Shown one piece after another: positions 9,127 through 47,774 of a DNA stretch of 47,774 nucleotides. The DNA is taken from positions 1 to 47,774 of the forward strand of contig CAJWCW010000001.1 of the NCBI GenBank assembly GCA_913030615.1, read 5' to 3'. Below the pieces are notes generated by a model that did not search any database, was not told the DNA's origin, and worked only from the letters and a program-made list of their open reading frames with translations. The translations under genes were made by a program, and so were the position numbers. The stretch comes from an uncultured Gammaproteobacteria bacterium. Lineage in GTDB: Bacteria > Pseudomonadota > Gammaproteobacteria > Pseudomonadales > Azotimanducaceae. Each line of letters opens with the position of its first letter. Position 1 is the stretch's first letter.

Positions 9127-9555
9127 GTTCGTGAAAGAGGTGGTGTGCGGATGTGGGCAGCGACGGAAAGGACCGCGCGGTCGTTAACGGGGCTCGGGTG
9201 GTAGAGACTCGAAACATTGTCGACGGGTTCGCCTCGGTTGTTCGTCTGCGTTGGGCGGTCACCGGCCCAGATCCACCTTGGTTAATGCGAATTCGCGTTC
9301 TTGATTCTCTTGATAGCACCAACAAGCGGAATTTTACGACGAGTCGAAACGCGCATGTTCGCTTCAAGACTATTTGTTGTAGGGCTAATTGATCTTGCGG
9401 AAAACGTTCATATTTGGAATATGCTGTAGGACTATCGGTAGCTATCAGGACAGCAGGTGACTAGGGCCAGTTCGACGATATCCCTCAATCATGTTCTCGT
9501 AAAAGCGACGCTCTTAGGAACCCTAATGGTCTCTCTAAATGACGCTAGGGTTCGG

Positions 9556-9600
9556 ATATAAAAATTAAAATTAATCTAATTATCAATAATTTACATAACT
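9556..9600 (+). promoter_or_regulatory. Extreme AT tract directly abutting the CoA-transferase ATG (promoter/UP element or A/U-rich leader)
   Basis: 45 nt with 4 C and no G (atataaaaattaaaattaatctaattatcaataatttacataact). No Shine-Dalgarno motif before ATG 9601, although other genes here have GGAGG-type sites. Confidence 0.3.
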
Positions 9601-14293: not shown

Positions 14294-15517
14294 TCACGCG
14301 TCGTGAGCTCTGCGTTTGGCAGCCCGTTCGAGCTTGAAGGTTTTGAGAGCAAGCCGCGGTAAACCGAGCGGATTCTTAAGGAACTTGCGAAGGATCAATC
14401 GTCGCATGTGGGGGGTACCCGAGAATATGCTTTCTCGCTGGCCGTGGCCGGTATGGATCGCCAAGGTTGGTACGTCAATCACGTCAAGTTTCACGCGCAG
14501 TGAGAGTGTTTCGGTTTTCGGCAGGAGACAGATCGAGTCATCGCACGCCTGATAGCGAAGCACCACATTGATATCTGCTGTGTCCTGATCGAGGGGGCGC
14601 GTTTCACTTGCCAGCGAACCCACCGCGTAAAAGGGGACGACGATGTCGACTTCGCCACTCCATATCCGAAGCTCAATGTTGGTACTTTTCAGAATGAGTG
14701 TCTCTGCGGGTGGGAAAATGGGGTCTTCAAACACTAAACCTGCGGAGCCAGAAATAGTGACCGTGGTGGGGACCATATCGTTGGGTACGGGTTCCCCGTA
14801 GATATGGAGGCCCGAGGGCAATTCGAAGCGAGCAACAAGATGTCTAATGATTCCCTGTCGTATTGTGCCTCGGCCGCCGCGGACAGATATAGAAACTGGG
14901 ATTTCCGGATCCTTATTGCTTACGTTCGGCTCGTCGCCAGTCAGTTGAATCCTGCCCTCTGCCGCGTCGAGTAGGTTTTCGGGGCTGTCCCGCTTTTTGT
15001 AGGTGTCGTGAAAAAACTTTGCGGTGACGACGCCTGATTCGTCAGTAACGTACGCTCCTGGAAATGGAATGCCCTCAAGAAAGGCATCCCCGCGACCGAC
15101 CTGATCGTTGAGGATGCCGTAGCGGCGGATCACTTTAGAGTCGATATCCGAAAGGAGTGGGTACGGGATCTCCTGCTTTTGACTGAACTCGCGGAGTATC
15201 TCTTGGTCGTCGTAGGAGATGGCATAGAGTTTGATGCCCGCCGACTGGAATTTTGGGTATGCGTCGCGAAGCTCGCCGAGCTGCGTCCAGCAAGGCGGTC
15301 ACCAAACGGCCGATCGAAAAAAAACGACGACGGCTTTGCAGTTGGCACGACTCTGGTGGAAATCAATGAGATCACCGTACGCATTGGGCAGTTGGAAATT
15401 TGGGAGCCGCTCGCCAACCTCAGGACCGGTTAAGTGGCCGCGAGGTAGCCCTGCTCGACCGGGATGCCCCAACGGTGCGGGAGCATCGAAACCGTGGTGA
15501 TCGCGTTCTACCGTCAC
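14294..15517 (-). CDS. Predicted selenoprotein: AhpC/TSA-redoxin domain with U-P-P-C motif fused to a DsbD-alpha-like domain (in-frame TGA at 15299-15301)
   Basis: Track ORFs 15299..15517 and 14294..15133 share one frame. Codon-by-codon translation of 15134-15298 shows no other stop. The junction reads VVVFFRSAVW-TGA-PPCWTQLGELRDAYPKFQSAGIKLYAISYDD. The C-terminal half has VVLRYQACDDSICLLP. GTG start 15517 with GGGAG 4 nt upstream. 407 codons, U at residue 73. Confidence 0.75.
15265..15285 (-). promoter_or_regulatory. Candidate bacterial SECIS hairpin for the redoxin UGA
   Basis: The mRNA segment CGCAGCUC-GGC-GAGCU(UC)GCG forms 8 bp with a 2-nt bulge. The G-rich apical loop begins 21 nt after the UGA. 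Folded by eye only. Confidence 0.4.
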
Positions 15518-15671
15518 GTAACTCCCTTTTCTTCTGGTGCGTCAAACGACTGACATATCAAGTCTATCAATGTGTGGACGGGTTGTTGTGCCAGCGGGTC
15601 GTCGAGGCGTACGAGATCGTTGGATAAGGGCGAATCAGCGCAACCGTTACACCCATTTTAAGGGCCATCGA

Positions 15672-22875: not shown

Positions 22876-23091
22876 ATGATTATCTGTTACTGCTTTCAAG
22901 TAACGAAGGAAGACATCGAGTCTCGTATCGCGAACGGAGAAACGCTTGCAGGTATCCGTGCGACGACTGGTTTGGGCTACGGATGCGGTGGTTGCGCGTC
23001 GCTAGCCGAACGTGCCTGGGGTGAAGAGTCGGAGCCAGAAGCCACCAACGGTTCGAGGCCTCGGACTGTCGGAGTTAAGACTTTTCCATAG
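22876..23091 (+). CDS. BFD-like [2Fe-2S]-binding domain protein
   Basis: 71 aa. MIICYCFQVT ... GYGCGGCA gives the C-x-C ... C-x-x-C pattern of bacterioferritin-associated-ferredoxin-type domains. Confidence 0.75.
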   Translation: MIICYCFQVTKEDIESRIANGETLAGIRATTGLGYGCGGCASLAERAWGEESEPEATNGSRPRTVGVKTFP

Positions 23092-23143: not shown

Positions 23144-24286
23144 TTAACGATCCCCTGGTGCCATGTAGAACCAAATCGGTTGCTTCTCGCCGGCTTCGCG
23201 CATTGCAGATCGAGCTTCCAGCAAGAGCTTTCCACCTTCAGTGCTATCGAAAAACCAGCGGGTCCCTGACCAAGCAGCGGGAATGTGATCGCTAAGTCCT
23301 AAGGCGGCCGTCTCGTAATAACCGCGAATGTCTTGTGCGACGCGGGCAGGGATGCCCGGTATACCGGCTTTTTTCCAGGGGCTCCCGTTCGCGACTTGAA
23401 TTAACGATAGGAGAGCGTCTTCGATGCCGTCAGCGTCAACAACTCGCCCGGTCCCTGAGTGATTACCGAATTGTTTGACGGCTCTTTCGTACGCCGGGCG
23501 GAGGCCACGAGCTTCGTCGATGGCGGGAGGTAAATCAGCAGTACTACGCGGCGGCAACGGACAAGTGAGGAGCTCTGCTTCGTCGGTGACGGCCTCTCCA
23601 AAATCTTCCAAAACCGGGCCTTCAGCTTGCAGTAATCGGAACGCGTGTTCTAGCACTCGATGCTGGAACGCGGGATCGCCGGGTTTTCCTAAGGGTCGAC
23701 CTAGGGGGAAATCGCACCAGAGTCCCCGAGGAGGAGCGGCGCCTTCGAGTTGTTTTCTTATCGAGCCGAGCGCGACGGTTGCAATGCCGTGTGCTTCGAA
23801 GACGTGGGCAAGCGTACTCACGGTACGTGTACACAAGGGTCAGACCGGGGTCAGTAGAACGACGTCGACACCTTGCTTCTTCAATAGAGTGGCACCGGCA
23901 GGGCCACTATCCATTCGGATCGCTGTCAGATCAAACTGATTACCTGCGTACGATAGATGCGAATCGGACACTCGCCCGATGGTTCCTTGAGACGCGAGTT
24001 CGTCGAGCCGATCCAAGGGAATGATGGTGTTGATGTCGCTAGCAAAGCCGACACTGTCGAAATTTGGGCTCCAGTGGCCGGTTTGGTAATCGCGTCTTTT
24101 CCCGTCCAGTACACGGAATCCCGTATCGTTGGGAGCGAAATCGTCTTGGTCTGCGTGATGAAGGGAGGCCGACGTGACGATCGCCACATTGGCTTGGCTT
24201 AAATGGGGTGGCGTCGTGAAAGCGGTCGTGTCGAATATGGGCGCTTCGACATCTTCCGCCATCTCCTTTACCTGCCTGTCTGCCAT
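23144..24286 (-). CDS. Predicted selenoprotein: glycine/sarcosine/betaine/D-proline reductase selenoprotein B (GrdB/PrdB) family-like protein (in-frame TGA at 23840-23842)
   Basis: Track ORFs 23840..24286 and 23144..23836 share one frame and are separated only by TGA + CCC. The junction reads GVDVVLLTPV-TGA-PLCTRTVSTLAHVFEAHGIATVALGS. Upstream, DINTIIPLDRLDELASQGTIGRVS matches my recollection of the GRDB domain. Strong RBS AAGGAGGAAGGAG before ATG 24286. 380 aa, U at residue 149. Confidence 0.72.
23813..23827 (-). promoter_or_regulatory. Candidate SECIS-like hairpin for the GrdB-like UGA
   Basis: The mRNA segment CGUAC-CGUGA-GUACG forms 5 bp with a 5-nt loop containing G. The loop starts 17 nt after the UGA. 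It is a short stem and was folded by eye. Confidence 0.3.
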
Positions 24287-24373
24287 CTCCTTCCTCCTTG
24301 CGTAATCAATGCGTTGAAAGGTTCGTTCGTGTGGTGATCGTTACGTTTGCACTTGGTATCCAAAGCCAACGAC

Positions 24374-25471
24374 CTAAATCGGTTGACTGACACTGTAGGT
24401 ATTCGGTTCGAGCTTTTCTGCTATTTCTCTTGTCAGCTCGCCGACTGGGTTAAATGCACCGTTCTCCAGTTCTTGTCGAACCTTCAACGCGTTCTTGCTC
24501 AGGCCCATTCGACGCAACAGCTTATCGCTCGCGTTAGCGATGATGTCGGGGCTGACCATAAGCATCCAACTCTCTTGCTGACGGAGCCACGTCTTGTTAT
24601 TAGCTTGAGTCATTACGTAACGCCATTCTTTTGATCGGTTGGCGCCGGTGCCATGTAATGTCCTGCCATCAAAGAGCATCACGGTACCTGCCGGTGCTTC
24701 GAGATTGATTGCAGGAGGCAGCTTTCCAACCTCGCCACCACTTCCGGCTTCGGAAAGAATCCGGTGGGAGCTTGGGATCAATAGTGTTCCACCATTTTTT
24801 TCGTTGACGTCTTGGAGTATGTACATGGTGTTGACTAACACCGGCGATTGCGGCGTTTGCAGCGGCAGGATGGCCCCCTGGTCCTGGTGAAGTGTCTGTG
24901 GTTTGCAGCCCGGGTAGGAGATATTCCCTGCCATGCTGTAGCTGTACCAACGTGTACCTAGAAACTCGTTCAACAGTTGTTCGATGACACGGCCCCCTTG
25001 GATCCATTCTGGGTCGTGTTCAATGCAGCGCCGGAAACACTCCCCTTTGTTGATGAGATACCAGACGATTTGGAAGAACGGAGTGAAGTGGGCAATATTC
25101 GCGATGCGTTCAGCTTCGGCTTGTTCTTCGAGGCGAGCTCGAAGCACGGCACGGGATTCTTCGCCGATCGCGTCCTCGATTAGGCAAAAGCCCCAGTCGA
25201 AAAAGTCGTGTCGCAGTTGGTTCAGGTCTTTGGTCGGCGTGGGTAAATCGTAATTCTTCCAATAAGAATGCTTTCTGGGAACCGTCGTGTCGTAGAACTT
25301 ACCTTCTCCCCAAACAAGCTCGTCATCTTCTGCTGGGCCCTGAAGCCACGGGTTGTTGGCGAGCATCGACTTGTATGGTTCCTGGCATTCGAGAAATTCC
25401 TTGAACGGTAAAAAGGCTTCTGCAGACGCGGCCTCGATCGCCTCTTGAGTAAATTCTTGTGGAATTGACAT
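24374..25471 (-). CDS. Phytanoyl-CoA dioxygenase (PhyH) family Fe(II)/2OG oxygenase
   Basis: 365 aa. LHQDQG (HxD), GGTLLIPSSHR, RTLHGTGANRS. Confidence 0.8.
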   Translation of the reverse strand: MSIPQEFTQEAIEAASAEAFLPFKEFLECQEPYKSMLANNPWLQGPAEDDELVWGEGKFYDTTVPRKHSYWKNYDLPTPTKDLNQLRHDFFDWGFCLIEDAIGEESRAVLRARLEEQAEAERIANIAHFTPFFQIVWYLINKGECFRRCIEHDPEWIQGGRVIEQLLNEFLGTRWYSYSMAGNISYPGCKPQTLHQDQGAILPLQTPQSPVLVNTMYILQDVNEKNGGTLLIPSSHRILSEAGSGGEVGKLPPAINLEAPAGTVMLFDGRTLHGTGANRSKEWRYVMTQANNKTWLRQQESWMLMVSPDIIANASDKLLRRMGLSKNALKVRQELENGAFNPVGELTREIAEKLEPNTYSVSQPI

Positions 25472-25480: not shown

Positions 25481-26395
25481 CTAACCGCCTAGCGACGATT
25501 CATTGATTGACGAAGGGTGAAAGTCACTGGCTCGATGATCCGCGAAGGTTGGCGCAAGTTCGGATTCCGGCTCGCCAGAAATTCGTGATGCTCTGAGTAT
25601 TCGAGGTTGGTTGGTGTCGTACGGTCTCGCTCGATGCATGACGCAGCGATTATCCCAAACAACGATATCGCCGACGCACCAACTATGTTTATAGGTTCTT
25701 GGAGGCTGGCAGGCATTGTCCAAGAGATCGGATAGTAATGTTTCGGATGCGAGCGGGCTCATCCCCGGGATTCCATAGGCATGCCGACCGGTATAGATGG
25801 ATTTACGTCCGGTTTCGGGGTGCTTCTTAACGATGGGTCGAAGCGGAGCGCCTTTGTCATGAAACCCGTATACGTGATCGGTCGTGTGAACGTACCCGGC
25901 CGTCGATTGCGAGTAATAAAGCGAATGGTAGGCGGACATTCCTTGCAGTTGTTCTTGGGTGTCGGCGTCGAGCTTATCCCATGCAGCTCGCATGTCGGCG
26001 AATTCCGTTTCGCCATTTTCTGGCGGTACGACCAGTGCCGCTAGCATGCCGGCTTTCGCAGCAAGCGGCATGTAGGTACTGTCCGTGTGCCAACCTTCGT
26101 TTCCCTTCATGAGACGGAATCCTTGGTCGTCCGGTTTGACCGTTTCGCCATTGGGTTTTTGGTTCGAAAATTGTAGCGTTGGCCCCGCTTGTTTTGGATG
26201 TAACTTTTCGGTGTTGCCGAAACGTAAAGCAAATTTTCCCTGTGAGTCCTCGGACAAGTGCTGACCAGGGAAAATCAAAACGCCGTATTCCAGGAAGTTA
26301 GTGTGGATTGCTTGCCAAAGGTCATCCTTCACGTTCGCAAGGTCGACGTCAGTTATGACTGCGCCTAACGTGGCATCGGTAGGTATGACATTCAT
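25481..26395 (-). CDS. TauD/TfdA family Fe(II)/2OG dioxygenase
   Basis: 304 aa. WHTDSTY (HxD) and WDNRCVMHRA. There is a 9-nt gap to the downstream PhyH gene. Confidence 0.85.
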   Translation of the reverse strand: MNVIPTDATLGAVITDVDLANVKDDLWQAIHTNFLEYGVLIFPGQHLSEDSQGKFALRFGNTEKLHPKQAGPTLQFSNQKPNGETVKPDDQGFRLMKGNEGWHTDSTYMPLAAKAGMLAALVVPPENGETEFADMRAAWDKLDADTQEQLQGMSAYHSLYYSQSTAGYVHTTDHVYGFHDKGAPLRPIVKKHPETGRKSIYTGRHAYGIPGMSPLASETLLSDLLDNACQPPRTYKHSWCVGDIVVWDNRCVMHRARPYDTNQPRILRASRISGEPESELAPTFADHRASDFHPSSINESSLGG

Positions 26396-26626
26396 CGGCC
26401 ATGTCCATCATTATTCGAGACGAACCATTTTACCCACTTCGTCAGTCTTGCCGCGATCATTAGTCTTGTGGACCAGCGTATGCGTCTCACGCTCGATCGG
26501 CGGCAGGACAGTTTGAACGGTACCCAAGTCTGTATAGGAATACGCGGCCCGGAGCTCCGCTTTGACGGCGACCTAAGCCTGCAGTAATTTGAGACGCGGA
26601 CGCCGCTCCAAGCAGTGTCTGAAAAA

Positions 26627-26671
26627 GGGGCTCACAGGCGTTGGGAGGGGAGAGAGATACCTGTGAGCCCC
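26627..26671. repeat. Palindromic (REP-like) repeat, copy A
   Basis: GGGGCTCACAGG (26627-26638) and its exact reverse complement CCTGTGAGCCCC (26660-26671), separated by 21 nt. The same arms recur at 42110-42152. Confidence 0.7.
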
Positions 26672-26918
26672 GAACTGAATTTTCTTCTTGGTCAGTATTC
26701 GTTTCTAAAGACTTTGACCCGCTGACCGGTTAAAGGTTCCGCATTGCTCGCGTAGCAAACAGAGTTGAAACTGAGATGGGCGGACATGCGTCTCAGCTTT
26801 CGGGCGGGCAAGTTGATCGTATGACGAGGAGGGGTTCGCTTTCGTATGCTTACTTCGCGTCTTAATCGATGCGCGCGATGTATCGCGCAATCTTGGCATG
26901 AATAGTGGGAGGCATTCG

Positions 26919-27560
26919 ATGGCTGAAAACACAAACCTCAGTTTTTTCGACCTTGTTGGCAACGTTCGGGCGATGCGTAGGTTGAAACCTGATCCCGTTC
27001 CAATGGAATTGATATGGAAGATCCTTAATGCTGGGGTGCAGGCCCCCTCTGGCCAAAATACCCAGCCGTGGCGCTTTGTGTTGGTCTCAGAACCCGCGGG
27101 CAAAAAATGGTTTGCCGATCACTACAAGCGTGCGATTGAGAAACGGTCTGCGCTGACGCGAGGTGCTTCCCGGCGTAGGGAAGACCCCGGTCGCCAATTG
27201 AAGGCCCTCTATTATCAAATCGACCACATGCATGAAGTACCGTACCTATTATTTGTTTGTGGAAAATGCGACTGGCCGTTTAAGGTCCCGGAGCACGAAC
27301 GTGTTGGCGAGGGCCCGCCGAACTACGGCGCGGTCTATCCGTGTGTACAAAACATCCTATTGGCGTGTCGAGCTTTGGGCCTAGGAGCGGCGCTAACGAC
27401 CATGCACCAGGTATTCGAGGAAGAGCTACATACATATTTTAACATTCCTCGGGATTATGGCGTTGTGGTGACCGTGCCCATCGGGTACCCGATGGGCAAT
27501 TTTGGGCCGGTCACAAGACGCCCGGCTGAAGACCTTACTTTTATTGAACGTTGGGGATAG
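26919..27560 (+). CDS. Nitroreductase family protein
   Basis: RAMRRLKPDPVP ... APSGQNTQPWRFVLV. ATG 26919 has GGGAGG 7 nt upstream. The track start 26898 is an upstream ATG. Confidence 0.8.
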   Translation: MAENTNLSFFDLVGNVRAMRRLKPDPVPMELIWKILNAGVQAPSGQNTQPWRFVLVSEPAGKKWFADHYKRAIEKRSALTRGASRRREDPGRQLKALYYQIDHMHEVPYLLFVCGKCDWPFKVPEHERVGEGPPNYGAVYPCVQNILLACRALGLGAALTTMHQVFEEELHTYFNIPRDYGVVVTVPIGYPMGNFGPVTRRPAEDLTFIERWG

Positions 27561-27634
27561 GCTCGAAGAATCACTAGACACGCTCGATTGGCCTTGTCCA
27601 AATACCAGTCTTGCGACCGCCTTGCCGCTGCGGG

Positions 27635-28420
27635 CTAGATGGATATTTCGCCTTGCAGATATTTTTTTGTGTGGCCGCCAATGAATACTCGGGAACCGCT
27701 CAACTCGCAATAAAGGCGCCCAGATCGTTGCGACAGCTGCGCTGCGGTGAACTCGGTTTTGCCGGTTTTACGGGCCCAATAGGGCACCATGAGCGTATGT
27801 GTGGACCCTGTCACAGGGTCTTCCGGGACGCCCGTTCTCGGCGCGAAAAAGCGAGAGACAAAGTCCACTTGGTCCCCTGGCGCCGTGACGATAACGCCCC
27901 TGCACTCTAGTTTGGCAAGTAAACTGAAGTCCGGGTCGATGGCGTGAATGGCCTTCTCACTCTCAAAGACTGCAAGGAAATCGTCTTGGCCCTTGTAAAA
28001 CTCGACGGGTTCTGCGCCTAGTGCCTGCGCGAGGTTCTTGTTTTTTTTCTCGACCGTAGGTGTCTCCGCGGGAAAATCCAAGTAGATCAAGTCGTCCCTT
28101 TTGAACGCGCTGAGGGAACCTCTTTTCGCCGAGAAATTAACGCGTGAAGAATTCGGTGGTAGGTGGTCGTCAAAGAGAATGCGCGCGCTTGCGAGAGTCG
28201 CATGGCCACACAGATCAACTTCCACCAAGGGGGAAAACCAACGAATCGAGAATGGCATCGCCGCGACCAATACGAATGCCGTTTCTGACAGATTATTTTC
28301 GAAAGCGATGGATTGCATGGTCGCAGTGTCGAGGCTCTCTGTGACAGTAACGACTGCGGCAGGATTGCCTTGGAAAAGTTTCTCAGCGAATGCGTCAACG
28401 TAATAGATGGGCAATCTCAA
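27635..28420 (-). CDS. PhzF-family isomerase/epimerase-like protein
   Basis: MRLPIYYVDAFAEKLFQGNPAAVV from TTG 28420, and EDPVTGSTH near the C-terminus. The track ORF extends to 28792, but that N-terminal extension overlaps the divergent gene and looks non-coding. Confidence 0.8.
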   Translation of the reverse strand: MRLPIYYVDAFAEKLFQGNPAAVVTVTESLDTATMQSIAFENNLSETAFVLVAAMPFSIRWFSPLVEVDLCGHATLASARILFDDHLPPNSSRVNFSAKRGSLSAFKRDDLIYLDFPAETPTVEKKNKNLAQALGAEPVEFYKGQDDFLAVFESEKAIHAIDPDFSLLAKLECRGVIVTAPGDQVDFVSRFFAPRTGVPEDPVTGSTHTLMVPYWARKTGKTEFTAAQLSQRSGRLYCELSGSRVFIGGHTKKYLQGEISI

Positions 28421-28616
28421 TCTAGGATTCCATTTGATCAGGGTGCGTTCGCGTGGTGTGCAGTAATGTACCAGAGGATGATCTTGACCTGTTTGATCGG
28501 GAAGGACTTCGGGACGCAAACCGATTGTTTCGTAATAATGATGCAGACGCGCGCCAACTTGGCGCGTAGATTGACGACGTGTTGTTTCTGAGATCTTTGA
28601 ATTGGCGCGTAATTTC

Positions 28617-30281
28617 ATGCAACGATTAAAAGTGTTTACGGCAGCTCGGATCCGAACGATGGACCCGGGTCGACCGGTGGCCAACGCGGTTGCGGTTGGT
28701 GACGGAAAAATTGTATCGGTAGGGTCACTGGAATCAATGCGGCCGTGGTTGCGAAGGGTCCCCCACGACATTGATGAGACTTTTGCTGACAAAGTAATAC
28801 TGCCCGGGTTTATCGATCCCCATACCCACCTGCGTCTATCTGGGACCTATATGGGGCTGAATTACGTTGGTCCGATCGATTCAACCGACCCAAACGGGAA
28901 ACCCTTGAAGGGTTTGCCAAATCGAGAAGCCGTGCTTTCGCGATTGAATTCGTTAGCCAAAGATCGTACCGAAGCAGTTGTTGCATGGGGTTACGATCCA
29001 GGTATGCAGGACGGTCATTTGGATCGAGACATGCTCGACGAGATCTCCTCGGAGGTCCCGATATGGGTAATTGCGTACGCGCCGCACATTATTTACACCA
29101 ACACGCCGATGATCGAAAGGATAGGTGTTGACGAAAATACTAGGGTGCATGGAGTCGGGCGCTATTCCGACGGAAGGCTAAACGGCTGGTTTGTCGAAAC
29201 TGAGGCGACGGCACTTGCCTCAGGTCCCGTGAAAAAGGAAGTGTTTGGAAAGGGATTTGGCCTGGCGTCGTTAGAACTTCAGGGACGCGTCGCTGTCAAA
29301 AGCGGGGTGACGACGACTGCCGATATGATTTACGGCATTGATTCGTTTGAACGCGAGTGGGAAGACCATGCGGCTGCGATTGAACAAGAGTTGCTACCCC
29401 TACGCGTGATGTTGGTTCCGTTTGAATCTCGATTACGTAAACGGTTCGGGGATGACTTTCTTCGTTTTTATGAATCCATGAAAAACAAGTCCACGGACCG
29501 TCTCGCCATACACGGCGTTAAATTCGTCAATGACGGATCGTATCCGTCGATGACCTTGCGTTTGAATTTCCCTGGATACCTCGACGGCGAGATCGGTCTC
29601 ACCGGTGAAGTACCGTGGGAGGACATGTTCGACCGAATGTTGCCATTCTGGAGTAACGGAATTCAGATCCACTCACATGCCAACGGCGACGAAACCGTCG
29701 ACATGACACTCAACACATTAAATGCGCTACAAAACGCCGCACCTCGATTCGATCATCGTTTCACCGTGGAACACTACTGCATCAGTACCCCCGCCCAAGC
29801 GAGACGACTTGCGGCGTTGGGTGGCCTTGCTAGCGTCAATCCCTATTTTGTGCATTACCGGTCACAAATCCACGCGGACCATGGGTTTGGCCCTGACCGG
29901 ACCGAGACGACAGCGCGGTTAGGGTCTCTGGTTAACGCGGGTGCGACTTTCGCTCTCCATTCCGACTACAACTTGGTGGTCGCGCCGATGCATCCTTTGA
30001 CTGCGGCATGGATTGCCGTGAATCGTATAGCAGCCGACGGGAAAACTGTTGTTGGGCCCGGCGAACGGATCTCGGTTGACCGGGCAATTCGCGCGATCAC
30101 CGTGGACGCAGCATTTGTTCTTAATAGAGACGATAGTTTGGGCAGTATTGAGGTAGGTAAACATGCCGACTTTGCAGTGCTTGATGACGATCCCTACGAG
30201 GTTGAACCCGGAGCCTTGAAGGCCATCGGTATCCATGGGACTGTGCTTGGAGGGAACGTTCATATTGCCGGTACCCCATAA
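28617..30281 (+). CDS. Amidohydrolase-3 (YtcJ-like) metal-dependent hydrolase, copy 1
   Basis: PGFIDPHTHL (HxH), IHSHANGDE, HSDY, GKHADFAVLDDDP. ATG 28617 gives MQRLKVFTAARI. Confidence 0.85.
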   Translation: MQRLKVFTAARIRTMDPGRPVANAVAVGDGKIVSVGSLESMRPWLRRVPHDIDETFADKVILPGFIDPHTHLRLSGTYMGLNYVGPIDSTDPNGKPLKGLPNREAVLSRLNSLAKDRTEAVVAWGYDPGMQDGHLDRDMLDEISSEVPIWVIAYAPHIIYTNTPMIERIGVDENTRVHGVGRYSDGRLNGWFVETEATALASGPVKKEVFGKGFGLASLELQGRVAVKSGVTTTADMIYGIDSFEREWEDHAAAIEQELLPLRVMLVPFESRLRKRFGDDFLRFYESMKNKSTDRLAIHGVKFVNDGSYPSMTLRLNFPGYLDGEIGLTGEVPWEDMFDRMLPFWSNGIQIHSHANGDETVDMTLNTLNALQNAAPRFDHRFTVEHYCISTPAQARRLAALGGLASVNPYFVHYRSQIHADHGFGPDRTETTARLGSLVNAGATFALHSDYNLVVAPMHPLTAAWIAVNRIAADGKTVVGPGERISVDRAIRAITVDAAFVLNRDDSLGSIEVGKHADFAVLDDDPYEVEPGALKAIGIHGTVLGGNVHIAGTP

Positions 30282-30282
30282 G

Positions 30283-31329
30283 ATGCGGTCCCAATCCGAG
30301 CATTTAATGGCAGCATGGGAAACGTTATTGCTTACTCTAGGCGCGCCGCCATCCGAAACACTTCCGGAACGGAACGTCACAAAACGAAATCAGGGGGCGC
30401 GCGGAACAAAAATCCCTGTGACGGTGCTCAGTGGGTTTCTTGGATCCGGGAAAACGACGTTACTTCAGCAATTGCTCCAAAATTCCTCGACCGAAATTGT
30501 TGCTATCGTGAACGATATAGCGTCGATCAATGTCGATGCCGCGCTCATCCGCTCCACGAATGCTGAAACCATTGAGCTCCAAAATGGATGCGTGTGTTGT
30601 GTGCTCGGTTCTGACTTGTTCGACTCGCTCCGGAACATTGGTTTACGATCAAAATGGCCGGACGCAATCGTAATCGAATCTAGCGGTCTCTCAGATCCAA
30701 TGGGCATCGCACAGACCGTGGCCAATGTTGACACTATGTCGCTCGATGGAATAGTTACGGTTGTAGACGCGCTCTCGTTTCGAGAAAGAATCGCTGATCC
30801 GGTCACAGCCATGCTTTTTGAACGCCAGCTTGCGGCTGCTCATCTTATTGTGTTGACCAAGACAGCCACGCGCAAAGATGCTGATCTGCTCATTGAAACG
30901 TTGGCCGAGATGGTTCCAGGACGCCGGGTCATCGTTTCCGATCTTTTGATGGGAAACGATGGCGAATTAGCCAATGACCTTTTGTTAGGGGCTTCAACGC
31001 AGGGCGCTCGACCGCCTCTAGGCGTTAGCACTCACGATTACGATGGATTTTCAGTTGAGACGGTCGATCGCCCCGAGCCGATTCGCGCACGAATTTTTTT
31101 TTCGTTATTGGACCAAATACCGGACTCCGTCTATCGGATGAAAGGTGGAGTCCGTGTCCGAGAGGAGAGTCGAGAGCTTGAACATGTGGAAACGTATTCC
31201 GTGCAAGCTGCCGGAGCCCACTGGCGCGTTGTTCGACAGCCCACGGAGGGGGAGTTGGACCGGCTTATTGTCATTGGACGCAGGAACGATCCCGCGTTGG
31301 AGTCGTTCGTTCTCAAACTTCGCGAATAA
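30283..31329 (+). CDS. COG0523 (CobW/ZigA-type) G3E GTPase metallochaperone, copy 1
   Basis: Walker A GFLGSGKTT and the CxCC motif NGCVCCV. ATG 30283 lies 1 nt after the amidohydrolase TAA. Confidence 0.85.
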   Translation: MRSQSEHLMAAWETLLLTLGAPPSETLPERNVTKRNQGARGTKIPVTVLSGFLGSGKTTLLQQLLQNSSTEIVAIVNDIASINVDAALIRSTNAETIELQNGCVCCVLGSDLFDSLRNIGLRSKWPDAIVIESSGLSDPMGIAQTVANVDTMSLDGIVTVVDALSFRERIADPVTAMLFERQLAAAHLIVLTKTATRKDADLLIETLAEMVPGRRVIVSDLLMGNDGELANDLLLGASTQGARPPLGVSTHDYDGFSVETVDRPEPIRARIFFSLLDQIPDSVYRMKGGVRVREESRELEHVETYSVQAAGAHWRVVRQPTEGELDRLIVIGRRNDPALESFVLKLRE

Positions 31330-31344
31330 CGGTCATCTCTTTGG

Positions 31345-32265
31345 CTATGGGGATTTTCCGTTGGGGTGGCATCCAGTGGAGTCCTCTAGAATTCCATCAG
31401 GAAATTTAGGCGACAGCGATGTTGGCCAAATCACGACGATTTCGGTTTGCTTTGGACTTTTGCCCCAAGCTTCCCCCGTCGAAATGGCTCTTTGCCTTCC
31501 GACACCTTGAATGACCCATCGGTGTTTTGGGTCACCTGAATTGTAGAAAATTCCCTTTATTCGGTGTATTTCCGGGGGAAGACTGACAAGCCAACTCTCG
31601 ATGTCGTCCAGATCCAGGGAATCGCTCGTAGTGAATGTTTTCGATTCGAACATTATGTTGGCACTGCCTACTGAAGAATGGTTGGACGCAGAAATTTCGA
31701 ATAGGCGTTGCGAGGCAAATTCGTCGCTTTGCATGATAGAAACATCGGGTGCTTGCGCATTAATCCAACGTTGAAGTGATGGCCAGTCGTTGTCTTTGTC
31801 GAGTTTTGTGACTAGGACTCTGTCGGCTTGGCGGAGCTGCTCAATAATCAGCGGGCCAACGAACTTATCCATTGCCAAGAGTTGGATTCGGTTGGCGTCG
31901 GCCATAACAAGTGTTCCGCCAGGTGCCAGTCCGGGCCAGGTTTTTGCATATGAAGCAATCTTTGCTGGGTACGCGACACCGCTGGTTTCCACCAGTACCG
32001 CATCGAGGGTTGGCGTGACATTCAAGAGTGTCTCTATGCCTGAACCAAGCTCGTTACCGAGTCGACAACACACGCATCCGTTGGCGAGAGAAATCAATGG
32101 CCCTTCTTGACCCTGAATTAACTTTGCGTCGATGTTTATGGCGCCGAAATCATTGATTAGTACACCAACCCGCAGGCCATGATTGTCGCCAAGAATCTTG
32201 TTTATCAATGTCGTTTTCCCGGCCCCGAGGTATCCGCCGATAACGATAAAAGGGACCTCAGTCAT
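31345..32265 (-). CDS. COG0523 (CobW/ZigA-type) G3E GTPase metallochaperone, copy 2
   Basis: Walker A GYLGAGKTT and the CxCC motif NGCVCCR. ATG 32265 overlaps the upstream amidohydrolase TGA (ATGACTGA, 8-nt overlap). Confidence 0.85.
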   Translation of the reverse strand: MTEVPFIVIGGYLGAGKTTLINKILGDNHGLRVGVLINDFGAINIDAKLIQGQEGPLISLANGCVCCRLGNELGSGIETLLNVTPTLDAVLVETSGVAYPAKIASYAKTWPGLAPGGTLVMADANRIQLLAMDKFVGPLIIEQLRQADRVLVTKLDKDNDWPSLQRWINAQAPDVSIMQSDEFASQRLFEISASNHSSVGSANIMFESKTFTTSDSLDLDDIESWLVSLPPEIHRIKGIFYNSGDPKHRWVIQGVGRQRAISTGEAWGKSPKQTEIVVIWPTSLSPKFPDGILEDSTGCHPNGKSP

Positions 32266-33910
32266 TGATAAGGTAGGGGGTGCCTTTGAACACCGTTGCC
32301 GCAACATCGATATCCTTTAATCCCTCCCCACCAACAGCGTATGGATCGGTATCGAGAACGGTGAAGTCCGCGCTCTTCCCGGCTCGTAAACTACCAATCT
32401 CGTCCTCCATCCCGAGCACGTAGGCGGCTTCGATGGTGATGGCGGCAAGTGCTTGGTCCAAGGTTAGCGATTCCTCGGGACAAACGACGTCGCCGTCCAT
32501 ATTTTTTCGTGTTGACGCGACCCAGGCATTGTTTAAGGGAGATGCGGGAGCCATCGTAAAGTCCGAATGGATGGCCGTATGGATGCCAGCGCGGACGCAA
32601 GAACCGACACGGGCCATTTGATGCGCGCGTTCGTATCCAATCCCTTGCTGCGCGTAGATCGCTGAAAGTTCGTGTACGTAATACACGTTGGCGGAAACTG
32701 ACGCGCCTAGAGCTGCGATTCGTGCCACTTGTTCCGGCGTAGAGAATCCAAAATGCTCGATGGTGTACCGGTGGTCAAAGCGTGGTCGTTCCCACTGCAA
32801 GGTATCCAACGCATCGAGCGCAAGTTCTAGCCCTAGGTCGCCTGTGCAATGAACGTGAATCATATAACCGGCGTTCCAATATCGGCGGGCGATGTCGATG
32901 AATTGTTCGGGTGCGACCAACCATTCCCCGAGATGACCGTCAATGTATCCAGGTTCTTTGAGTTGAGCGAGTTGAGAGAAGAAGGCGCCGTCGGTGAATA
33001 GTTTGACGTGCTTTGGGAACAATAAACGCTCGGTACCGCGTTCAGCCAATCCATCCATGAAAGTTAGCGCTTGATCATGGCCCCCTTGTATCGACGCGAC
33101 GCTAGCCGCCGAGGGAACCAAAACGGTTCTGAACGGGGTATTTACGTCGTCCAACACGTCCTTGGTGCCTTGCCACTCCATGTCGAAATTGAACAAGCCC
33201 ACTGCCATGTCACCGAGCGTTGTGTGGCCTCCGTGATGCGCGACTTCTACAAGCCTCCGCAAGCCGTCTCGATAACGTTCGTTTGACAGAATATATGGGT
33301 TGAGTTTGACGATGGCGTAAGCGAGGCCGTTCTCATAAAACCGGCCGGCGGCGAAGTCGATTTGTTGTTTACCCTCGGTCTCGTTGGCCGTAATCCCAAG
33401 CCAAGCCATGGCACCGTCGTTCATGTATAGCTCGTGAAATGATCGATGCCAGACGATGATCGGTCTGTCGACGGACACGGCATTCAACAACGTCCGGTTC
33501 ATCGGACCATGCCAAAGTTGGTGGTAACCCCATGTAAAGAGTGGTTCGTCGGGCGCTTGTTCGCCGTGAAGTTCATGCAACCGCCGAAAGAAGTCTACGG
33601 GCGTAGTCACCGGTTGGACGGTTTCCCACGGCAGTTCCCAACGGGTAGCCGTGATAAATCGCATCGGCAATAACACCGCTGCCATTGAGGGATGCAAGTG
33701 CGGGTCGATGAATCCGGGAGCGACGACTTTATCTGCGAACTGATCGTTGATGCGATGTGGATGAGATTCCAGCCAGGGTTTGAGTGTTTCGAGTGTGCCC
33801 ACCTCCATTATCCTGCCGTTTTTGGTGGCAATTGCTGTGGCGTAAGGCCAAGAGCGATTCATCGTGATGACTTTTCTTGCTGTAAAAACCGTGAGCTCGT
33901 CTGTTCCCAT
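32258..33910 (-). CDS. Amidohydrolase-3 (YtcJ-like) metal-dependent hydrolase, copy 2
   Basis: PGFIDPHLHP, IHVHCTGD, HSDF, GKSADFTVLDTDP. A clear paralogue of 28617..30281: shared VFTA, VG(S/T)LE, PWL, FADKV blocks. Confidence 0.85.
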   Translation of the reverse strand: MGTDELTVFTARKVITMNRSWPYATAIATKNGRIMEVGTLETLKPWLESHPHRINDQFADKVVAPGFIDPHLHPSMAAVLLPMRFITATRWELPWETVQPVTTPVDFFRRLHELHGEQAPDEPLFTWGYHQLWHGPMNRTLLNAVSVDRPIIVWHRSFHELYMNDGAMAWLGITANETEGKQQIDFAAGRFYENGLAYAIVKLNPYILSNERYRDGLRRLVEVAHHGGHTTLGDMAVGLFNFDMEWQGTKDVLDDVNTPFRTVLVPSAASVASIQGGHDQALTFMDGLAERGTERLLFPKHVKLFTDGAFFSQLAQLKEPGYIDGHLGEWLVAPEQFIDIARRYWNAGYMIHVHCTGDLGLELALDALDTLQWERPRFDHRYTIEHFGFSTPEQVARIAALGASVSANVYYVHELSAIYAQQGIGYERAHQMARVGSCVRAGIHTAIHSDFTMAPASPLNNAWVASTRKNMDGDVVCPEESLTLDQALAAITIEAAYVLGMEDEIGSLRAGKSADFTVLDTDPYAVGGEGLKDIDVAATVFKGTPYLIND

Positions 33911-33915
33911 AATCG

Positions 33916-36393
33916 TTACTGCCTCACCCGCAAAGAATCTGGATCGTACATCGGCCTGAAGCTCGCGGCAGCTGGAAATCTGGTCCCAGCGATCTCTATT
34001 TCAAAATTACTGTCGTTGATAGACGCTTGGTTTAGGGGTTGCTTGGCGGCGATGTATCCGAGGGCTACGTTGCCGCCCAAGGTATGGCCGTAATTGGCTG
34101 ATGTGACATAACCTACCTGAACCCCGTCTCGAAAAATGGGTTCGTCGTGGTACGGCCGAGCCTCTTGGTCCGGTAAAAGAAATTGGGTCAAGCGGCGGTC
34201 GACGCCTTCGTCTCGTTGGCGCAGAAGCGCATCTTGACCGATAAAGGCAGTCTCTTTGTCAAATGCACAGGCAAAGCCTAGACCGGCCTCTAGTGGAGTA
34301 TCGCCGTCGGCAATATCGTGTCCCCAATGGCGGTAGGCTTTTTCGATCCGACACGAATCAAGTGCATGGTACCCGGCTAGGCCGATTCCGACCGATTTGC
34401 CTGCGTCGAACACTGCGCAAAAAAGCTCGAGTGCGGCGTTCCAGGGACAGTACAGCTCCCATCCAAGTTCACCCACGTAGGTGATGCGTTGGGCCCAACA
34501 AGTGATTCCGGTTATTTCAAGCTCTCGCCCGGTTCCAAATGGAAATGACTCGTTGTCGAGATTTGTGCGCGTCAACGAAGAAAGGAGCGTACGGCTTTGG
34601 GGACCCATCACGCCCAAAACAGCCCATTCTTCGGTGACATCGGATACAGAACAGTCCTTGCCCGTCGGAATATGGTTTAGCAACCAGTGCCAATCTTTAC
34701 GTCTAGTGGTCGGCGCTGTAATTACTCGAAAGGCGTGTTCGGCGATCCGCGTGACGGTGACGTCGGCTTCGATGCCAGCCCGTTCATTCAGCCAGGGAGT
34801 GTAGGTGATTGAACCTATATCTCGACCCACACTGTTTGCGCAGATTCGTTCCAATACGCATTCTGCATCCGGACCTACGACGTCAAATTTGGCAAATGAC
34901 GTTTGGTCGTAAAGCGCTACTCGTTCTCGTGTTGTCTCGTGCTCTTTTTTTTGGTTGTGGTACCAATTTTGTGGGCCGTAACTGTATTCGTATTTGGGCT
35001 TGGTTCCCGCATCGGCAAACCAGTTGGCCCGTTCCCAGCCGGCTAATTCGCCGAAGCAAGCTCCCTCGGATACGAGACGTTGATGAAGCGGACTGCAAAG
35101 CACATCCCGGCTTGTCGTGTATTGCCGATACGGCCAGTGCATGCCGTAGAGCATGCCCAGAGTTTCGCTGACTCGGTCGCGGAGATATAGGGATTCGTTT
35201 TGGAAAGGGAAAGTCCGTTGTATATTTACTTCCCAAAGATCCGGCGGTGGGTAGCCACGCATTATCCACTCGGCGATCGCCAGGCCAACGCCGCCCGCGG
35301 ATTGAATACCGATGGAGTTGAATCCGGCGGCGACGAAGTAGCCTTTTAGTTCTGGCGCTTCGCCGATGAGGTAGCGATTATCGGGTGTGAAACTCTCCGG
35401 CCCATTAAAAAAACGCGATAGACCCGTTTCCCTAATTCGGGGTACGCGTCGGGTTGCGCCTTCGAGAATGGGCGCCACATGGTCGAGGTCTTCCGGCAGT
35501 TCGCCAAAGGAGAAGTCGTTCGGTATCCCATTCATTCCCCAAGGTTTACCGACAGGTTCGAAGGCTCCAATCAGGAGCTTTCCCGCGTCTTCCTTGAAGT
35601 AGGCGCAACCGTCAAAGTCTCGCAATATCGGGAGATCCGAGGGCAGATCAGCGATAGGTTCCGTCAGGCAATAGAAGTGTTCGCACGCATGCAACGGAAC
35701 GTTGACGCCTGAGGCTTGAGCCAATTCTCGCGCCCACATGCCTGCGCAATTAACGATTATTTCCGAAGCGATGTAACCGACCGACGTTTCCACCCCTCGG
35801 ACTTGGCCATCTTGTTGTACGACACCGATGACAGGTGTCTTCTCCATAAGACGCGCACCAAACAGCCGAGCACCCTTCGCGAGCGCCATCGTGACGTCGA
35901 CGGGATTGATCTGCCCATCGTTCGGATAGTAGATCGCGCCGACCAAGTCATTAGTCTGGGCTAGTGGCCATAATTGCGCGACGTCCCTTGAGGTTGCTTC
36001 CTCTGCTTCGATGCCAAGACTGCGCGCCACTGTCGCGCCACGTCGCAGTTCTCCCCAGCGGTCTTGATCGGTGGCGATCGCAATGCTGCCGTTGCGTTTT
36101 AATCCAGTCGCCTGTCCTGTCTCTTCGGTGAGTTTTTCGTAAAGCGATACGGAATATCGAGCCAATTCAGTTAACGCGCGAGTTCCACGGAACTCTGAAA
36201 GAAGACCGGCCGCATGCCACGTGGTCCCGCTGGTAAGCCGGTCACGCTCAAGAAGAAGAACGTCTTCCCCCAGTTTCGCTAGGTGGTAGGCGACGCTGCA
36301 ACCTACCACGCCTCCACCCAAAACGATGACGCCTGCGGTCGTCGGCTGTTCCTGGGTTTCGAGTTCTTTATGATTGTCGGTACGTTGTTTCAA
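33916..36393 (-). CDS. Dimethylglycine/sarcosine dehydrogenase-like FAD oxidoreductase fused to a GcvT (folate-binding) domain
   Basis: 825 aa. GGGVVGCSVAYHLAKLG, and TSGTTWHAAGLL, which is the covalent-flavin His context of the DMGDH/SDH family. C-terminal aminomethyltransferase-type domain. Confidence 0.85.
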   Translation of the reverse strand: MKQRTDNHKELETQEQPTTAGVIVLGGGVVGCSVAYHLAKLGEDVLLLERDRLTSGTTWHAAGLLSEFRGTRALTELARYSVSLYEKLTEETGQATGLKRNGSIAIATDQDRWGELRRGATVARSLGIEAEEATSRDVAQLWPLAQTNDLVGAIYYPNDGQINPVDVTMALAKGARLFGARLMEKTPVIGVVQQDGQVRGVETSVGYIASEIIVNCAGMWARELAQASGVNVPLHACEHFYCLTEPIADLPSDLPILRDFDGCAYFKEDAGKLLIGAFEPVGKPWGMNGIPNDFSFGELPEDLDHVAPILEGATRRVPRIRETGLSRFFNGPESFTPDNRYLIGEAPELKGYFVAAGFNSIGIQSAGGVGLAIAEWIMRGYPPPDLWEVNIQRTFPFQNESLYLRDRVSETLGMLYGMHWPYRQYTTSRDVLCSPLHQRLVSEGACFGELAGWERANWFADAGTKPKYEYSYGPQNWYHNQKKEHETTRERVALYDQTSFAKFDVVGPDAECVLERICANSVGRDIGSITYTPWLNERAGIEADVTVTRIAEHAFRVITAPTTRRKDWHWLLNHIPTGKDCSVSDVTEEWAVLGVMGPQSRTLLSSLTRTNLDNESFPFGTGRELEITGITCWAQRITYVGELGWELYCPWNAALELFCAVFDAGKSVGIGLAGYHALDSCRIEKAYRHWGHDIADGDTPLEAGLGFACAFDKETAFIGQDALLRQRDEGVDRRLTQFLLPDQEARPYHDEPIFRDGVQVGYVTSANYGHTLGGNVALGYIAAKQPLNQASINDSNFEIEIAGTRFPAAASFRPMYDPDSLRVRQ

Positions 36394-38258: not shown

Positions 38259-38607
38259 GAACTTTCTCAAAGCGTTTATGTAACTGAGTTTGCGCAGTAC
38301 GACCCTGCGGAATTTGCCGCAGGAACGTGCAAACGCCAAACCTACGCCGCTATGCCTGATCTGTCACGTCTCGTGCTAGACATTGAGCTAAGAAATCTAT
38401 GTGAAGCAGTATGTATTAAGAAAAGACCGACTGGTTGAGAATAGCGCCATGGTTGGAGAGTCGGTGGTGTTCGCTACCGAAAGCGATCGTCCCAAAGCGA
38501 GCTCAACAGACGCTGCCGATGCAGAACAAAGACTGGAGCGTATGGCATGGGTATTATTGTTCGTAGGCGTAAGCCTCTTTGTTTGGCTCGCAATAACTAG
38601 GATTCGT

Positions 38608-46541: not shown

Positions 46542-47744
46542 TTAAAAGTCCCCAGCTGGTGTCGCCCGTGCTCTGGCTGGTGCCCAGAAAGGTTCCTGTT
46601 TGATGCAGCATTTAGCTACTTTGCTGTACTGCCTGAGTTCCTTTTCATAATAGATTTCGGACCAAATTTCTCCGTCGAGATACTCGGTCTCGATCATCGC
46701 AAGTGCAATATTCGCCTTTGCCGCTGGCGACCACATGCCTGAAGTGACGTAACCAATTTCGTCCGTGCAACGCTTACTGCTGTAAACGAACGAACCTTCG
46801 GCAGGCTTGTTGCCCTCGATATCCAGCTTGGTCAAGGTGTACGTTGGACCGCGTTGTTGCTCGGCCCACAAGGCGCGCCGGCCATTGAAGTGAGGCTTCT
46901 TGAAGTCGACCAACCAACCCAGATTGAGTTCGAACGGTGTCTGATCGTGCTCAAAATGGACCGTTTTTAGAGCTTCGTTGAATTCGTACCCGGGCATAAT
47001 GAAGCCGGCTTCGAGCCGCAACATATTGGTCGCCTGGTCGCCATAGGGATGAATACCTAGATCGCGGCCGGCTTCGTAGACCGCGTCCCACAGCTGGATA
47101 GCGAGTTCGTGGTCTATCCATAGTTCGTAACCAAGATCGCCGGTGAAACCCGTTCTGGACACCATGAGTCTGTCACCGTGAAAATCGAAATAGTTGATCG
47201 AGAACGGCTTTGCGTTCTCGATGTTGGTAAGGCCCATGCGTTTAAGTACAGCGCACGAGGTTGGCCCTTGCAGCGCCATTGCAGCAATCTCGTCGGTTTT
47301 GTCGACAATGGTGGTGTTAAATCCAAAGGCGCTTTTGTCCAGCCAGGCTGTGCAGGGACTACCACAATTCAAAACGAATTGGTCGTCGGCTAGTTTGAAA
47401 ATGGTGCCGTCGTCGATCAGGCGCCCCTCATCGTTGCACCACACCACGTAGCTAGCGCGATTGGTCCGCATCTTCGTTACGTCGCGGGTCACCATCCTGT
47501 TGAGCATTCTCTCCGCATCTGGACCGCTGATGAGGTATTTCTGCATCGGGCAAATGTCGTAGGTGCCACAGGTATTGCGAACGCAGAAATATTCGTACTC
47601 CACGTCGTAAAAGTACTCTGCGAATTTGTAACCGTTCCATGAAGACCAAGCGTCGTGAATATTGAGTTCGTCTTGGCGTTGCTGGAAGTGGCTGGGCTTA
47701 GGACGCTCACTTGAAAAATCGTAGTCACTCATCGTCGAAGTCAT
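46542..47744 (-). CDS. GcvT-family aminomethyltransferase (folate-dependent demethylase-like)
   Basis: About 400 aa. MALQGP, RTGFTGDLGYELW, and C-terminal barrel. The start is ATG 47744 or 47732. Substrate not inferable. Confidence 0.8.
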   Translation of the reverse strand: MTSTMSDYDFSSERPKPSHFQQRQDELNIHDAWSSWNGYKFAEYFYDVEYEYFCVRNTCGTYDICPMQKYLISGPDAERMLNRMVTRDVTKMRTNRASYVVWCNDEGRLIDDGTIFKLADDQFVLNCGSPCTAWLDKSAFGFNTTIVDKTDEIAAMALQGPTSCAVLKRMGLTNIENAKPFSINYFDFHGDRLMVSRTGFTGDLGYELWIDHELAIQLWDAVYEAGRDLGIHPYGDQATNMLRLEAGFIMPGYEFNEALKTVHFEHDQTPFELNLGWLVDFKKPHFNGRRALWAEQQRGPTYTLTKLDIEGNKPAEGSFVYSSKRCTDEIGYVTSGMWSPAAKANIALAMIETEYLDGEIWSEIYYEKELRQYSKVAKCCIKQEPFWAPARARATPAGDF

Positions 47745-47774
47745 CTGCGGGAACACTATTGGGTCGCTTAAGAT

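Follow-up and report, generated by a model that had tools for sequence, protein, structure and literature searches.

The stretch of DNA analysed here, called the window below, comprises 47,774 nucleotides (nt) of contig CAJWCW010000001.1 from an uncultured gammaproteobacterium (assembly GCA_913030615.1), and the gene in question is a minus-strand gene for a predicted selenoprotein with a domain related to PrdB and GrdB, the B subunits of D-proline and glycine reductase. Its frame opens with an ATG at 24286..24284 and closes with a TAA at 23146..23144; the sole in-frame TGA, at 23842..23840, corresponds to residue 149 of a joined product of 380 residues. The first-pass annotation, made from the sequence alone, held that the open reading frames (ORFs) 23840..24286 and 23144..23836 lie in one frame with only the TGA and a CCC codon between them. 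The sequence bears this out: the TGA is followed by CCC and then by the TTG at which the mechanically listed ORF 23144..23836 starts. The joined translation quoted in that annotation is reproduced exactly as well, with GVDVVLLTPV before the in-frame stop and PLCTRTVSTLAHVFEAHGIATVALGSIRKQ after it, or, over a longer stretch, VVLLTPV followed by the stop and PLCTRTVSTLAHVFEAHGIATVALGS. This is one gene with a single 380-residue selenoprotein frame, and it contains the following features.

23144..24286, minus strand: complete predicted selenoprotein gene of 380 codons and a stop, with read-through of TGA codon 149 (from the sequence, tblastn and cysteine homologues)
24287..24299, minus strand: Shine-Dalgarno-like purine tract AAGGAGGAAGGAG, directly 5' of the ATG (read from the sequence)
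23840..23842, minus strand: in-frame UGA, predicted to specify selenocysteine as residue 149, which opens the U-P-L-C redox motif (from relatives, cysteine homologues and the PrdB profile)
23627..24271, minus strand: domain of PrdB/GrdB type covering residues 6-220, in which C152 and C191 are invariant and which includes the CDFPLGRPLGKPGD segment (from Pfam, NCBIfam, cysteine homologues and an AlphaFold2 model)
23147..23626, minus strand: C-terminal domain (residues 221-380) specific to the family and mostly helical, in which C242 is invariant (matched by no Pfam or NCBIfam model)
23812..23828, minus strand: putative upper hairpin of a selenocysteine insertion sequence (SECIS), 17 nt, with 5' arm 23828..23823, loop CGUGA 23822..23818 and 3' arm 23817..23812 (from comparison of relatives)
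23808..23832, minus strand: putative extended SECIS, with a lower 2-bp helix (G23832-C23808, U23831·G23809) and a 2x2 internal loop below the upper hairpin (from pair columns)

Relatives were sought in one genome per species, which yielded 566 stretches encoding them, and the best 80 were analysed. These 80 loci align over residues 1-380 and show 65-93% identity on both sides of the TGA (tblastn). The relatives of the window protein as a whole, which include both selenocysteine (Sec) and cysteine (Cys) forms, come from TARA, ALOHA and other marine assemblies. The closest relatives, at 88-93% identity, are found in metagenome-assembled genomes (MAGs) of uncultured marine Gammaproteobacteria/Pseudomonadales and clearly belong to the window's own clade, and many others among the best 80 are from Acidimicrobiia (65-75% protein identity). 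CAJWQX01, JAKUTH01, PBGU01 and PBAA01 are the closest MAGs, and the gene is also carried by complete Acidimicrobiales/Poriferisodalis chromosomes, OZ220472 and NZ_OZ242342 among them. The TGA stands at exactly the residue-149 column in 80 of these 80 loci, flanked by (L/F)TP(V/I) on one side and P(L/M)CTRT on the other.

The public records tell the same gene apart into pieces. Among the 120 top public matches to the N-terminal half, 118 are exactly 148 aa long, that is, the gene calls are split at the TGA, and 114 of the 120 top matches to the whole protein are C-terminal pieces of 220-234 aa. Six homologues, by contrast, are full-length single polypeptides (387-458 aa, ~50% identity), and these carry Cys at the TGA column, within PV-C-PxC-[T/S]RT. 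The window's own N-terminal fragment is found on 95 contigs. In the window itself, TGA is the ordinary stop of 6 of the 39 ORFs, which argues against a global reassignment of the code. Taken together, the TGA in 80 of 80 loci, the split public calls, the Cys homologues and the ordinary TGA stops exclude, for practical purposes, the readings as a pseudogene, a sequencing error or two genes. As judged from these alignments, the UGA is conserved, Cys and Sec are equivalent at this position, and the TGA is a selenocysteine codon rather than a pseudogene lesion.

The sequence following the UGA adds a separate line of evidence. A hairpin with its loop 17 nt past the UGA had been noticed from the sequence alone, and it is present at 23828..23812 as described. 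In the window it reads ACGUAC-CGUGA-GUACGC and starts 11 nt past the UGA; in most relatives it reads GCGUAC-CGUGA-GUACGC, with a 6-bp stem closed at its base by a G-C pair and a 5-nt loop. Folding of the window sequence by itself gave no signal for a SECIS (the 76-nt fold has z = +1.68, and a second test of this kind gave z = +0.59), whereas comparative constraint and compensatory changes favour one. The hairpin is not better than chance in the window alone, and its significance comes only from comparison.

Across the relatives, the codons +4 to +9 (ACG CGT ACC GTG AGT ACG) are almost invariant, whereas neighbouring codons of equally conserved residues vary freely. For residues conserved in at least 90% of the sequences and specified by 4- or 6-fold degenerate codons, the synonymous codon entropy of the six hairpin codons is 0-0.42 bits, compared with 0.88 to ~2.3 bits (median 1.8) for the 78 other conserved codons (Mann-Whitney p = 2.5e-5), and nowhere in the gene is the RNA more constrained than in the hairpin region. 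Compensatory changes in the stem replace U-A with C-G in 4 distinct sequences and G-C with A-U in 1. The lower helix is similarly maintained, with pair columns 14-38 being G-C in 63 of 64 distinct sequences and pair columns 15-37 being C-G in 48 and U-G in 16 of them. In the genes of Cys homologues (two independent sequences), the same T-R-T-V-G/S-T residues are specified by other codons, and the hairpin cannot form. This pattern shows constraint on the hairpin at the RNA level, and we propose that the hairpin would recruit SelB.

Compared with known bacterial SECIS elements (the E. coli fdhF type and the bSECIS model of Zhang & Gladyshev 2005), the element is likewise an in-ORF hairpin directly past the UGA, and its distance of 17 nt from the UGA to the loop falls inside the range of 16-37 nt given for bacteria (PMC10778597). 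The apical loop also holds G and U, as expected of such elements. Unlike them, the stem lacks a bulged U and the loop is the 5-nt CGUGA; furthermore, the hairpin sequence is almost invariant across two phyla, and no Rfam family matches in the window at the gathering threshold, the hairpin included. In size and spacing the hairpin resembles the minimal 17-nt element of E. coli fdhF reported by Liu et al. 1998, which is located 11 nt past the UGA.

The 20-nt core of the putative SECIS is almost identical between the Acidimicrobiia copies (loci L008-L080) and the gammaproteobacterial ones (the window and L001-L007). This near-identity in two phyla suggests that the gene moved horizontally, along with its decoding element, between Gammaproteobacteria and Acidimicrobiia. 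A nearly invariant 17-nt SECIS common to two phyla would be a compact and well-defined element for studying both SelB recognition and the transfer of selenoprotein genes.

A variant of the stem is seen in three contigs (L028, L029 and L031) of a single MAG (FRAM_RAS_F4_03_2017_2-MAG_24), all of which carry the gene with near-identical flanking ORFs; in each copy the SECIS stem (GCGCAC...GUACGC) contains a C·A mismatch. These copies could be paralogues, strain variants or redundant assembly.

With respect to protein family, the first-pass annotation had proposed a GrdB/PrdB-type protein, and the homology part of this proposal stands. The joined product matches Pfam GRDB (PF07355) over residues 12-146 with 27.5 bits against a gathering cut-off of 22 (E 2.5e-6), and precomputed hits show PF07355 in most of the public 148-aa fragments as well. 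The best NCBIfam match is to PrdB (TIGR04483), with E 8.9e-30 and residues 6-220 aligned to profile positions 3-219 of 238. The identification as bona fide PrdB or GrdB did not hold: the score of 103.9 bits is below the TIGR04483 equivalog cut-off of 300, and that against the selenoprotein-B subfamily model TIGR01918 is 39.6 bits against 65.45 and covers only profile positions 200-372 of 431; matches to the GrdF, GrdH and GrdB models are confined to their C-terminal third. When the two halves are scanned separately, residues 6-146 align to PrdB profile positions 3-145 and the fragment from residue 149 to positions 148-219. In the coordinates of these split-query scans, the TGA thus falls on the Sec column of the family, as had been anticipated, at profile position 148, followed by P-L-C in a U-x-x-C arrangement, and it is here that the homologues carry Cys. 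The Sec of Clostridioides difficile PrdB is U151 (PMC11229817), and the PrdB family motif is UxxC (PMC13188914, PMC2398784), whereas that of GrdB is UxxCxxC (PMC13188914). The window has U-P-L-C-T-R-T, with Thr in place of the third Cys, so the motif is of the PrdB type and not of the GrdB type suggested at first.

The remainder of the protein, residues 221-380, is matched by no Pfam or NCBIfam model. A full HMMER scan with this C-terminal domain gave 198 matches at E<=1e-3 among 1.84 billion representatives, nearly all of which belong to this family, either as pieces from beyond the TGA or as complete Cys forms. Segments resembling this domain also occur in two proteins of different architecture, P0254 (1019 aa, match at 685-825) and P0376 (1745 aa, 11 stretches), which could be fusions, repeats or mis-assemblies.

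The lack of partner genes in the loci covered distinguishes this family further. The neighbour analysis relied on contigs annotated with Pfam and on a census of the Pfam families of 150 immediate neighbours, drawn from 78 species loci; naive ORF clustering was dropped because long antisense ORFs in the GC-rich Acidimicrobiia distorted it. In the 47.8-kb window there is no Gly_reductase, GRDA or PrdC-type gene. A PrdA/GrdE/GrdA/PrdC-type gene was likewise not found on the annotated contigs that carry other Sec and Cys members, and none appears among the census's 25 commonest Pfam families. PrdA and Grd partners are thus missing among the annotated neighbours; in Clostridia, prdA and prdB lie in one gene cluster, and Prd activity needs the pyruvoyl subunit PrdA and the maturase PrdH (PMC11229817). 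Given the scores below the NCBIfam cut-offs, the lack of a PrdA/GrdA/GrdE partner in the loci covered and the extra C-terminal domain, we describe the protein as PrdB-like and not as PrdB or GrdB proper.

Clostridial PrdB (of Clostridium sticklandii and C. difficile; TIGR04483) and the window protein share ~215 homologous residues, collinear with the profile, and Sec at an equivalent position in UxxC (profile 148 compared with U151; PMC11229817, PMC13188914). They differ in that the window protein remains far below the equivalog score, is 380 aa long owing to its family-specific C-terminal domain, compared with 25.7 kDa for clostridial PrdB, and has no prdA, prdC or prdH gene found nearby. The hosts differ too, being Stickland fermenters in one case and uncultured marine Gammaproteobacteria and Acidimicrobiia with aerobic-type neighbouring genes in the other. 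The resemblance to GrdB, GrdF and GrdH (TIGR01917/01918, PF07355) is limited to the C-terminal third of these ~430-aa proteins (profile ~200-372 of 431), and the Pfam GRDB match, residues 12-146 against 205-345 of 347, ends 2 residues before the Sec. Unlike the GrdB family, the window protein has no counterpart of the first ~200 residues, does not reach the subfamily cut-off, has UxxC instead of UxxCxxC (PMC13188914), and is accompanied by no grdA, grdE or grdC gene that could be found.

For the fold, an AlphaFold2 model of the Cys homologue P0015 stood in for the window protein. The model (pLDDT, the predicted local distance difference test, 92.9; pTM, the predicted template-modelling score, 0.92) has an alpha/beta domain of alternating strands and helices, followed by a helical domain. 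Cys150, the equivalent of Sec, occupies the loop that joins strand 143-147 to helix 151-166, just before the helix N-terminus, and Cys153 is in the first helical turn, a placement which in the model is a classic redox CxxC setting. A Foldseek search of the model against the PDB gave nothing at E<=1e-3 (the best match is a photocobilin protein with a template-modelling score of 0.30), and a sequence search of the PDB found no relative of the window protein.

We favour, with a probability of roughly 85%, a 380-residue selenoprotein with hairpin-directed Sec149 that is most likely a self-contained Sec-dependent reductase and not the B subunit of a pyruvoyl-dependent D-proline/glycine reductase. 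Under this model, the ribosome would read UGA-149 as selenocysteine, with the in-ORF 17-nt hairpin, 11 nt past the UGA and with a GU-containing loop, recruiting SelB·GTP·Sec-tRNASec. Sec149 and Cys152, at the strand-to-helix junction of the PrdB/GrdB-like alpha/beta domain, would form a selenol/thiol redox pair; this domain would be followed by the family-specific helical C-terminal domain, with C191 and C242 as further invariant Cys. The enzyme would reduce a small imported metabolite in aerobic marine heterotrophs; the redox chemistry and the class of substrate are inferred. The choice of a stand-alone Sec/Cys reductase with an imported small molecule as its substrate follows from the neighbourhood, in which transporters are the commonest immediate neighbours. 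A bolder version of the model is, in our view, possible but rather doubtful: no subunit of a proline or glycine reductase at all but a self-sufficient two-domain selenoenzyme with four invariant Sec/Cys, in which the C-terminal domain replaces the pyruvoyl subunit, and which would cleave an imported metabolite reductively, by a reaction not yet described, in oxic seawater and have spread horizontally with its SECIS between Gammaproteobacteria and Acidimicrobiia.

Several observations weigh against the favoured model. The stem in the window has only 5 Watson-Crick pairs and an A·C at its base, and the hairpin on its own (-4.5 kcal/mol) is not thermodynamically distinctive, 36 of 200 shuffles being equally stable. 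The control in which the hairpin is absent consists of only two independent Cys-homologue sequences. Neither the window nor any of the 97 fetched loci contains a selA, selB or selD gene or a tRNA-Sec (ARAGORN gave no hit in the former and no tRNA-Sec in the latter), so that evidence for the Sec competence of the organism is indirect. Gene neighbourhoods differ between lineages, which makes the substrate a guess, and the four invariant Cys/Sec residues could bind a metal or an Fe-S cluster instead.

Among the alternatives, a genuine B subunit of D-proline (or glycine, betaine or sarcosine) reductase, with the pyruvoyl subunit encoded elsewhere in the genome, is improbable, though less so than the others. 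PrdB TIGR04483 is indeed the best family match (E 8.9e-30), the UxxC motif and the Sec position are the same (PMC13188914), and the Joint Genome Institute (JGI) label on the fragments is "D-proline reductase (dithiol) PrdB". The scores of 103.9 and 39.6 bits nevertheless fall short of the respective cut-offs of 300 and 65.45, an extra 160-residue domain is present, the window and the annotated neighbours lack the PrdA/GrdE/GrdA/PrdC gene that would be expected given the clustering of clostridial prdA and prdB (PMC11229817), and the gene context looks aerobic, with Fe(II)/2-oxoglutarate (2OG) dioxygenases, a pyrroloquinoline quinone (PQQ) dehydrogenase and a cytochrome c domain. That UGA is read not as Sec but as Trp or Gly (genetic codes 4 and 25), or as Cys by near-cognate suppression, we consider very unlikely. 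The failure to find Sec machinery in the sequence examined would fit such decoding, but TGA terminates 6 of the 39 window ORFs, the homologues have Cys at this column and neither Trp nor Gly, only the TGA forms have, past this codon, a SECIS-like hairpin on which selection acts, another UGA of the window is also at a UxxC motif, and the family is listed as a selenoprotein family in PMC1088965 and PMC2398784.

The two remaining alternatives take the TGA as a true stop. Gene callers and NCBI do give two ORFs, as a pseudogene or a sequencing or assembly error without read-through would imply; the first-pass annotation had argued against a lesion or random error, and we reach the same view, as this reading is refuted by the same TGA in 80 of 80 independently assembled species genomes, by the strong protein-level conservation of both halves in the tblastn relatives, by the maintenance of the downstream RNA at synonymous sites, and by the occurrence of the N-terminal fragment on 95 contigs, leaving it a negligible probability. 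Equally hard to credit as a change of decoding is a pair of proteins, one of 148 residues and one of ~225 residues re-initiated at the GTG codon +7, with the conserved nucleotides serving as a re-initiation signal. This GTG is invariant and is where gene callers begin the second ORF (M/VSTLAHVFE); however, such a split cuts the U/C-x-x-C motif and loses the invariant Cys152, the Cys homologues are uninterrupted single chains, no purine-rich Shine-Dalgarno sequence lies 5' of the GTG, the compensatory changes preserve pairing rather than sequence, and AlphaFold2 gives one domain in which strand 143-147 and helix 151-166 are contiguous.

The existence of such a family is not new: a marine PrdB-type selenoprotein family has been known since 2005, and the window gene adds one more member to it. 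"Proline reductase (PrdB), UxxC" is given as the third most abundant selenoprotein family of the Sargasso Sea, with 42 Sec genes (PMC1088965), and in the Global Ocean Sampling (GOS) data PrdB is among the top selenoprotein families, the members placed in pfam07355 being 235 Sec genes and 110 Cys homologues (PMC2398784); reviews up to 2026 list the PrdB selenoprotein family (PMC9312934, PMC13188914). The window gene shares pfam07355, UxxC, marine origin and abundance with the "Proline reductase PrdB" family of these papers (Zhang, Fomenko & Gladyshev 2005; Zhang & Gladyshev 2008), and its membership would follow from domain, motif, habitat and abundance. The papers differ in treating the family as proline reductase, and their accessible portions mention neither the missing PrdA nor the extra C-terminal domain. 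A literature search on PrdB-like and GrdB-like proteins returned only papers on fluoroacetate in Synergistota, and the NCBIfam release scanned has no model naming the family.

What the literature covered here does not settle is a marine family without the defining proline-reductase partner, with a C-terminal domain almost confined to it and a near-identical SECIS in two phyla. A highly abundant ocean selenoprotein family still carries the label "proline reductase", and its gene is split into two hypothetical ORFs (148 aa and ~226 aa) in hundreds of public protein clusters. With a correct family model, the annotations of many marine MAGs and the counts of selenoproteomes could be put right. The label stands in contrast to the PrdA partner not found in the loci covered, the aerobic look of the neighbours and a C-terminal domain nearly exclusive to the family.

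In the window, the selenoprotein gene is the last in a co-directional row of TauD-family, PhyH-family and PrdB-like genes, and its closest neighbours are as follows.

22876..23091, plus strand: gene for a BFD-like [2Fe-2S] protein of 71 aa, convergent, 52 nt beyond the selenoprotein stop (kept only in the window's clade, L001-L004)
24374..25471, minus strand: gene for a PhyH-family Fe(II)/2OG dioxygenase, upstream (from Pfam)

In ~24-28 of the 80 loci, a PhyH-family gene is found upstream in the same orientation; these loci belong to Gammaproteobacteria and several clades of Acidimicrobiia, and this dioxygenase may be a functional partner. At L040-L077 the PhyH genes lie ~1.3-3.2 kb upstream of the homologous gene, and identity between the phyla is only ~30%. 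The search for a conserved partner gene in the loci of relatives found only lineage-specific synteny: Fer2_BFD, TauD and esterase neighbours are seen only in the window's own clade, and Acidimicrobiia have adjacent MFS/EamA or tripartite ATP-independent periplasmic (TRAP) transporters and SDRs. In the census, the commonest immediate neighbours are MFS_1 (28), EamA (13), SDR (10) and DctM (4), that is, transporters prevail.

Other lineages have different neighbours. In L085-L087 (9152-10675), a SelO gene starts 5 nt past the PrdB-like gene and a gene for a pyridoxal phosphate (PLP)-dependent decarboxylase ends 28 nt before it; this lineage is a widespread gammaproteobacterial one, with its N-terminal fragment on 142 contigs. 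The Cys form in L088 adjoins a gene for GcvH (glycine-cleavage H, a lipoyl carrier protein; 9236-9628), and that in L090 (1877-2863, 6126-7088) stands beside a second, 320-aa GRDB-like paralogue and a thioredoxin-reductase-like flavoprotein; these neighbours of the Cys forms are possible electron donors.

The wider region of the window also contains DAO-FAO_M-GCV_T, amidohydrolase, CobW, PQQ-dehydrogenase and nitroreductase genes. The segments 25481..36393 and 46542..47756 encode a TauD-family dioxygenase, PhyH, a DAO-FAO_M-GCV_T fusion (825 aa), two Amidohydro_3 proteins, two CobW proteins, a GCV_T protein, an aminotransferase and an aldehyde dehydrogenase, a cluster which suggests catabolism of methylated amines or osmolytes. 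Judging by the neighbours, candidate substrates of the selenoenzyme would be betaines, hydroxylated amino acids and amines. The Fe(II)/2OG dioxygenase families, the PQQ dehydrogenase and a cytochrome c domain give the window its aerobic look. The ORF at 38401-40242 was considered as SelB and rejected, its Pfam assignment being flavin monooxygenase-like.

Finally, the second in-frame TGA reported in the first-pass annotation exists and lies at a UxxC motif.

14294..15541, minus strand: frame with an in-frame TGA at 15301..15299, ...AVVVFFRSAVW-U-PPCWTQLGEL... (AhpC/TSA, Prx-like, UxxC motif)

The frame continues for ~334 more codons, and public calls label the product of these (279 aa) as DsbD_N, a weak assignment. 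It is probably another selenoprotein split by annotation, and such a second in-frame TGA of the UxxC type in the same window lends indirect support to the Sec competence of the organism.

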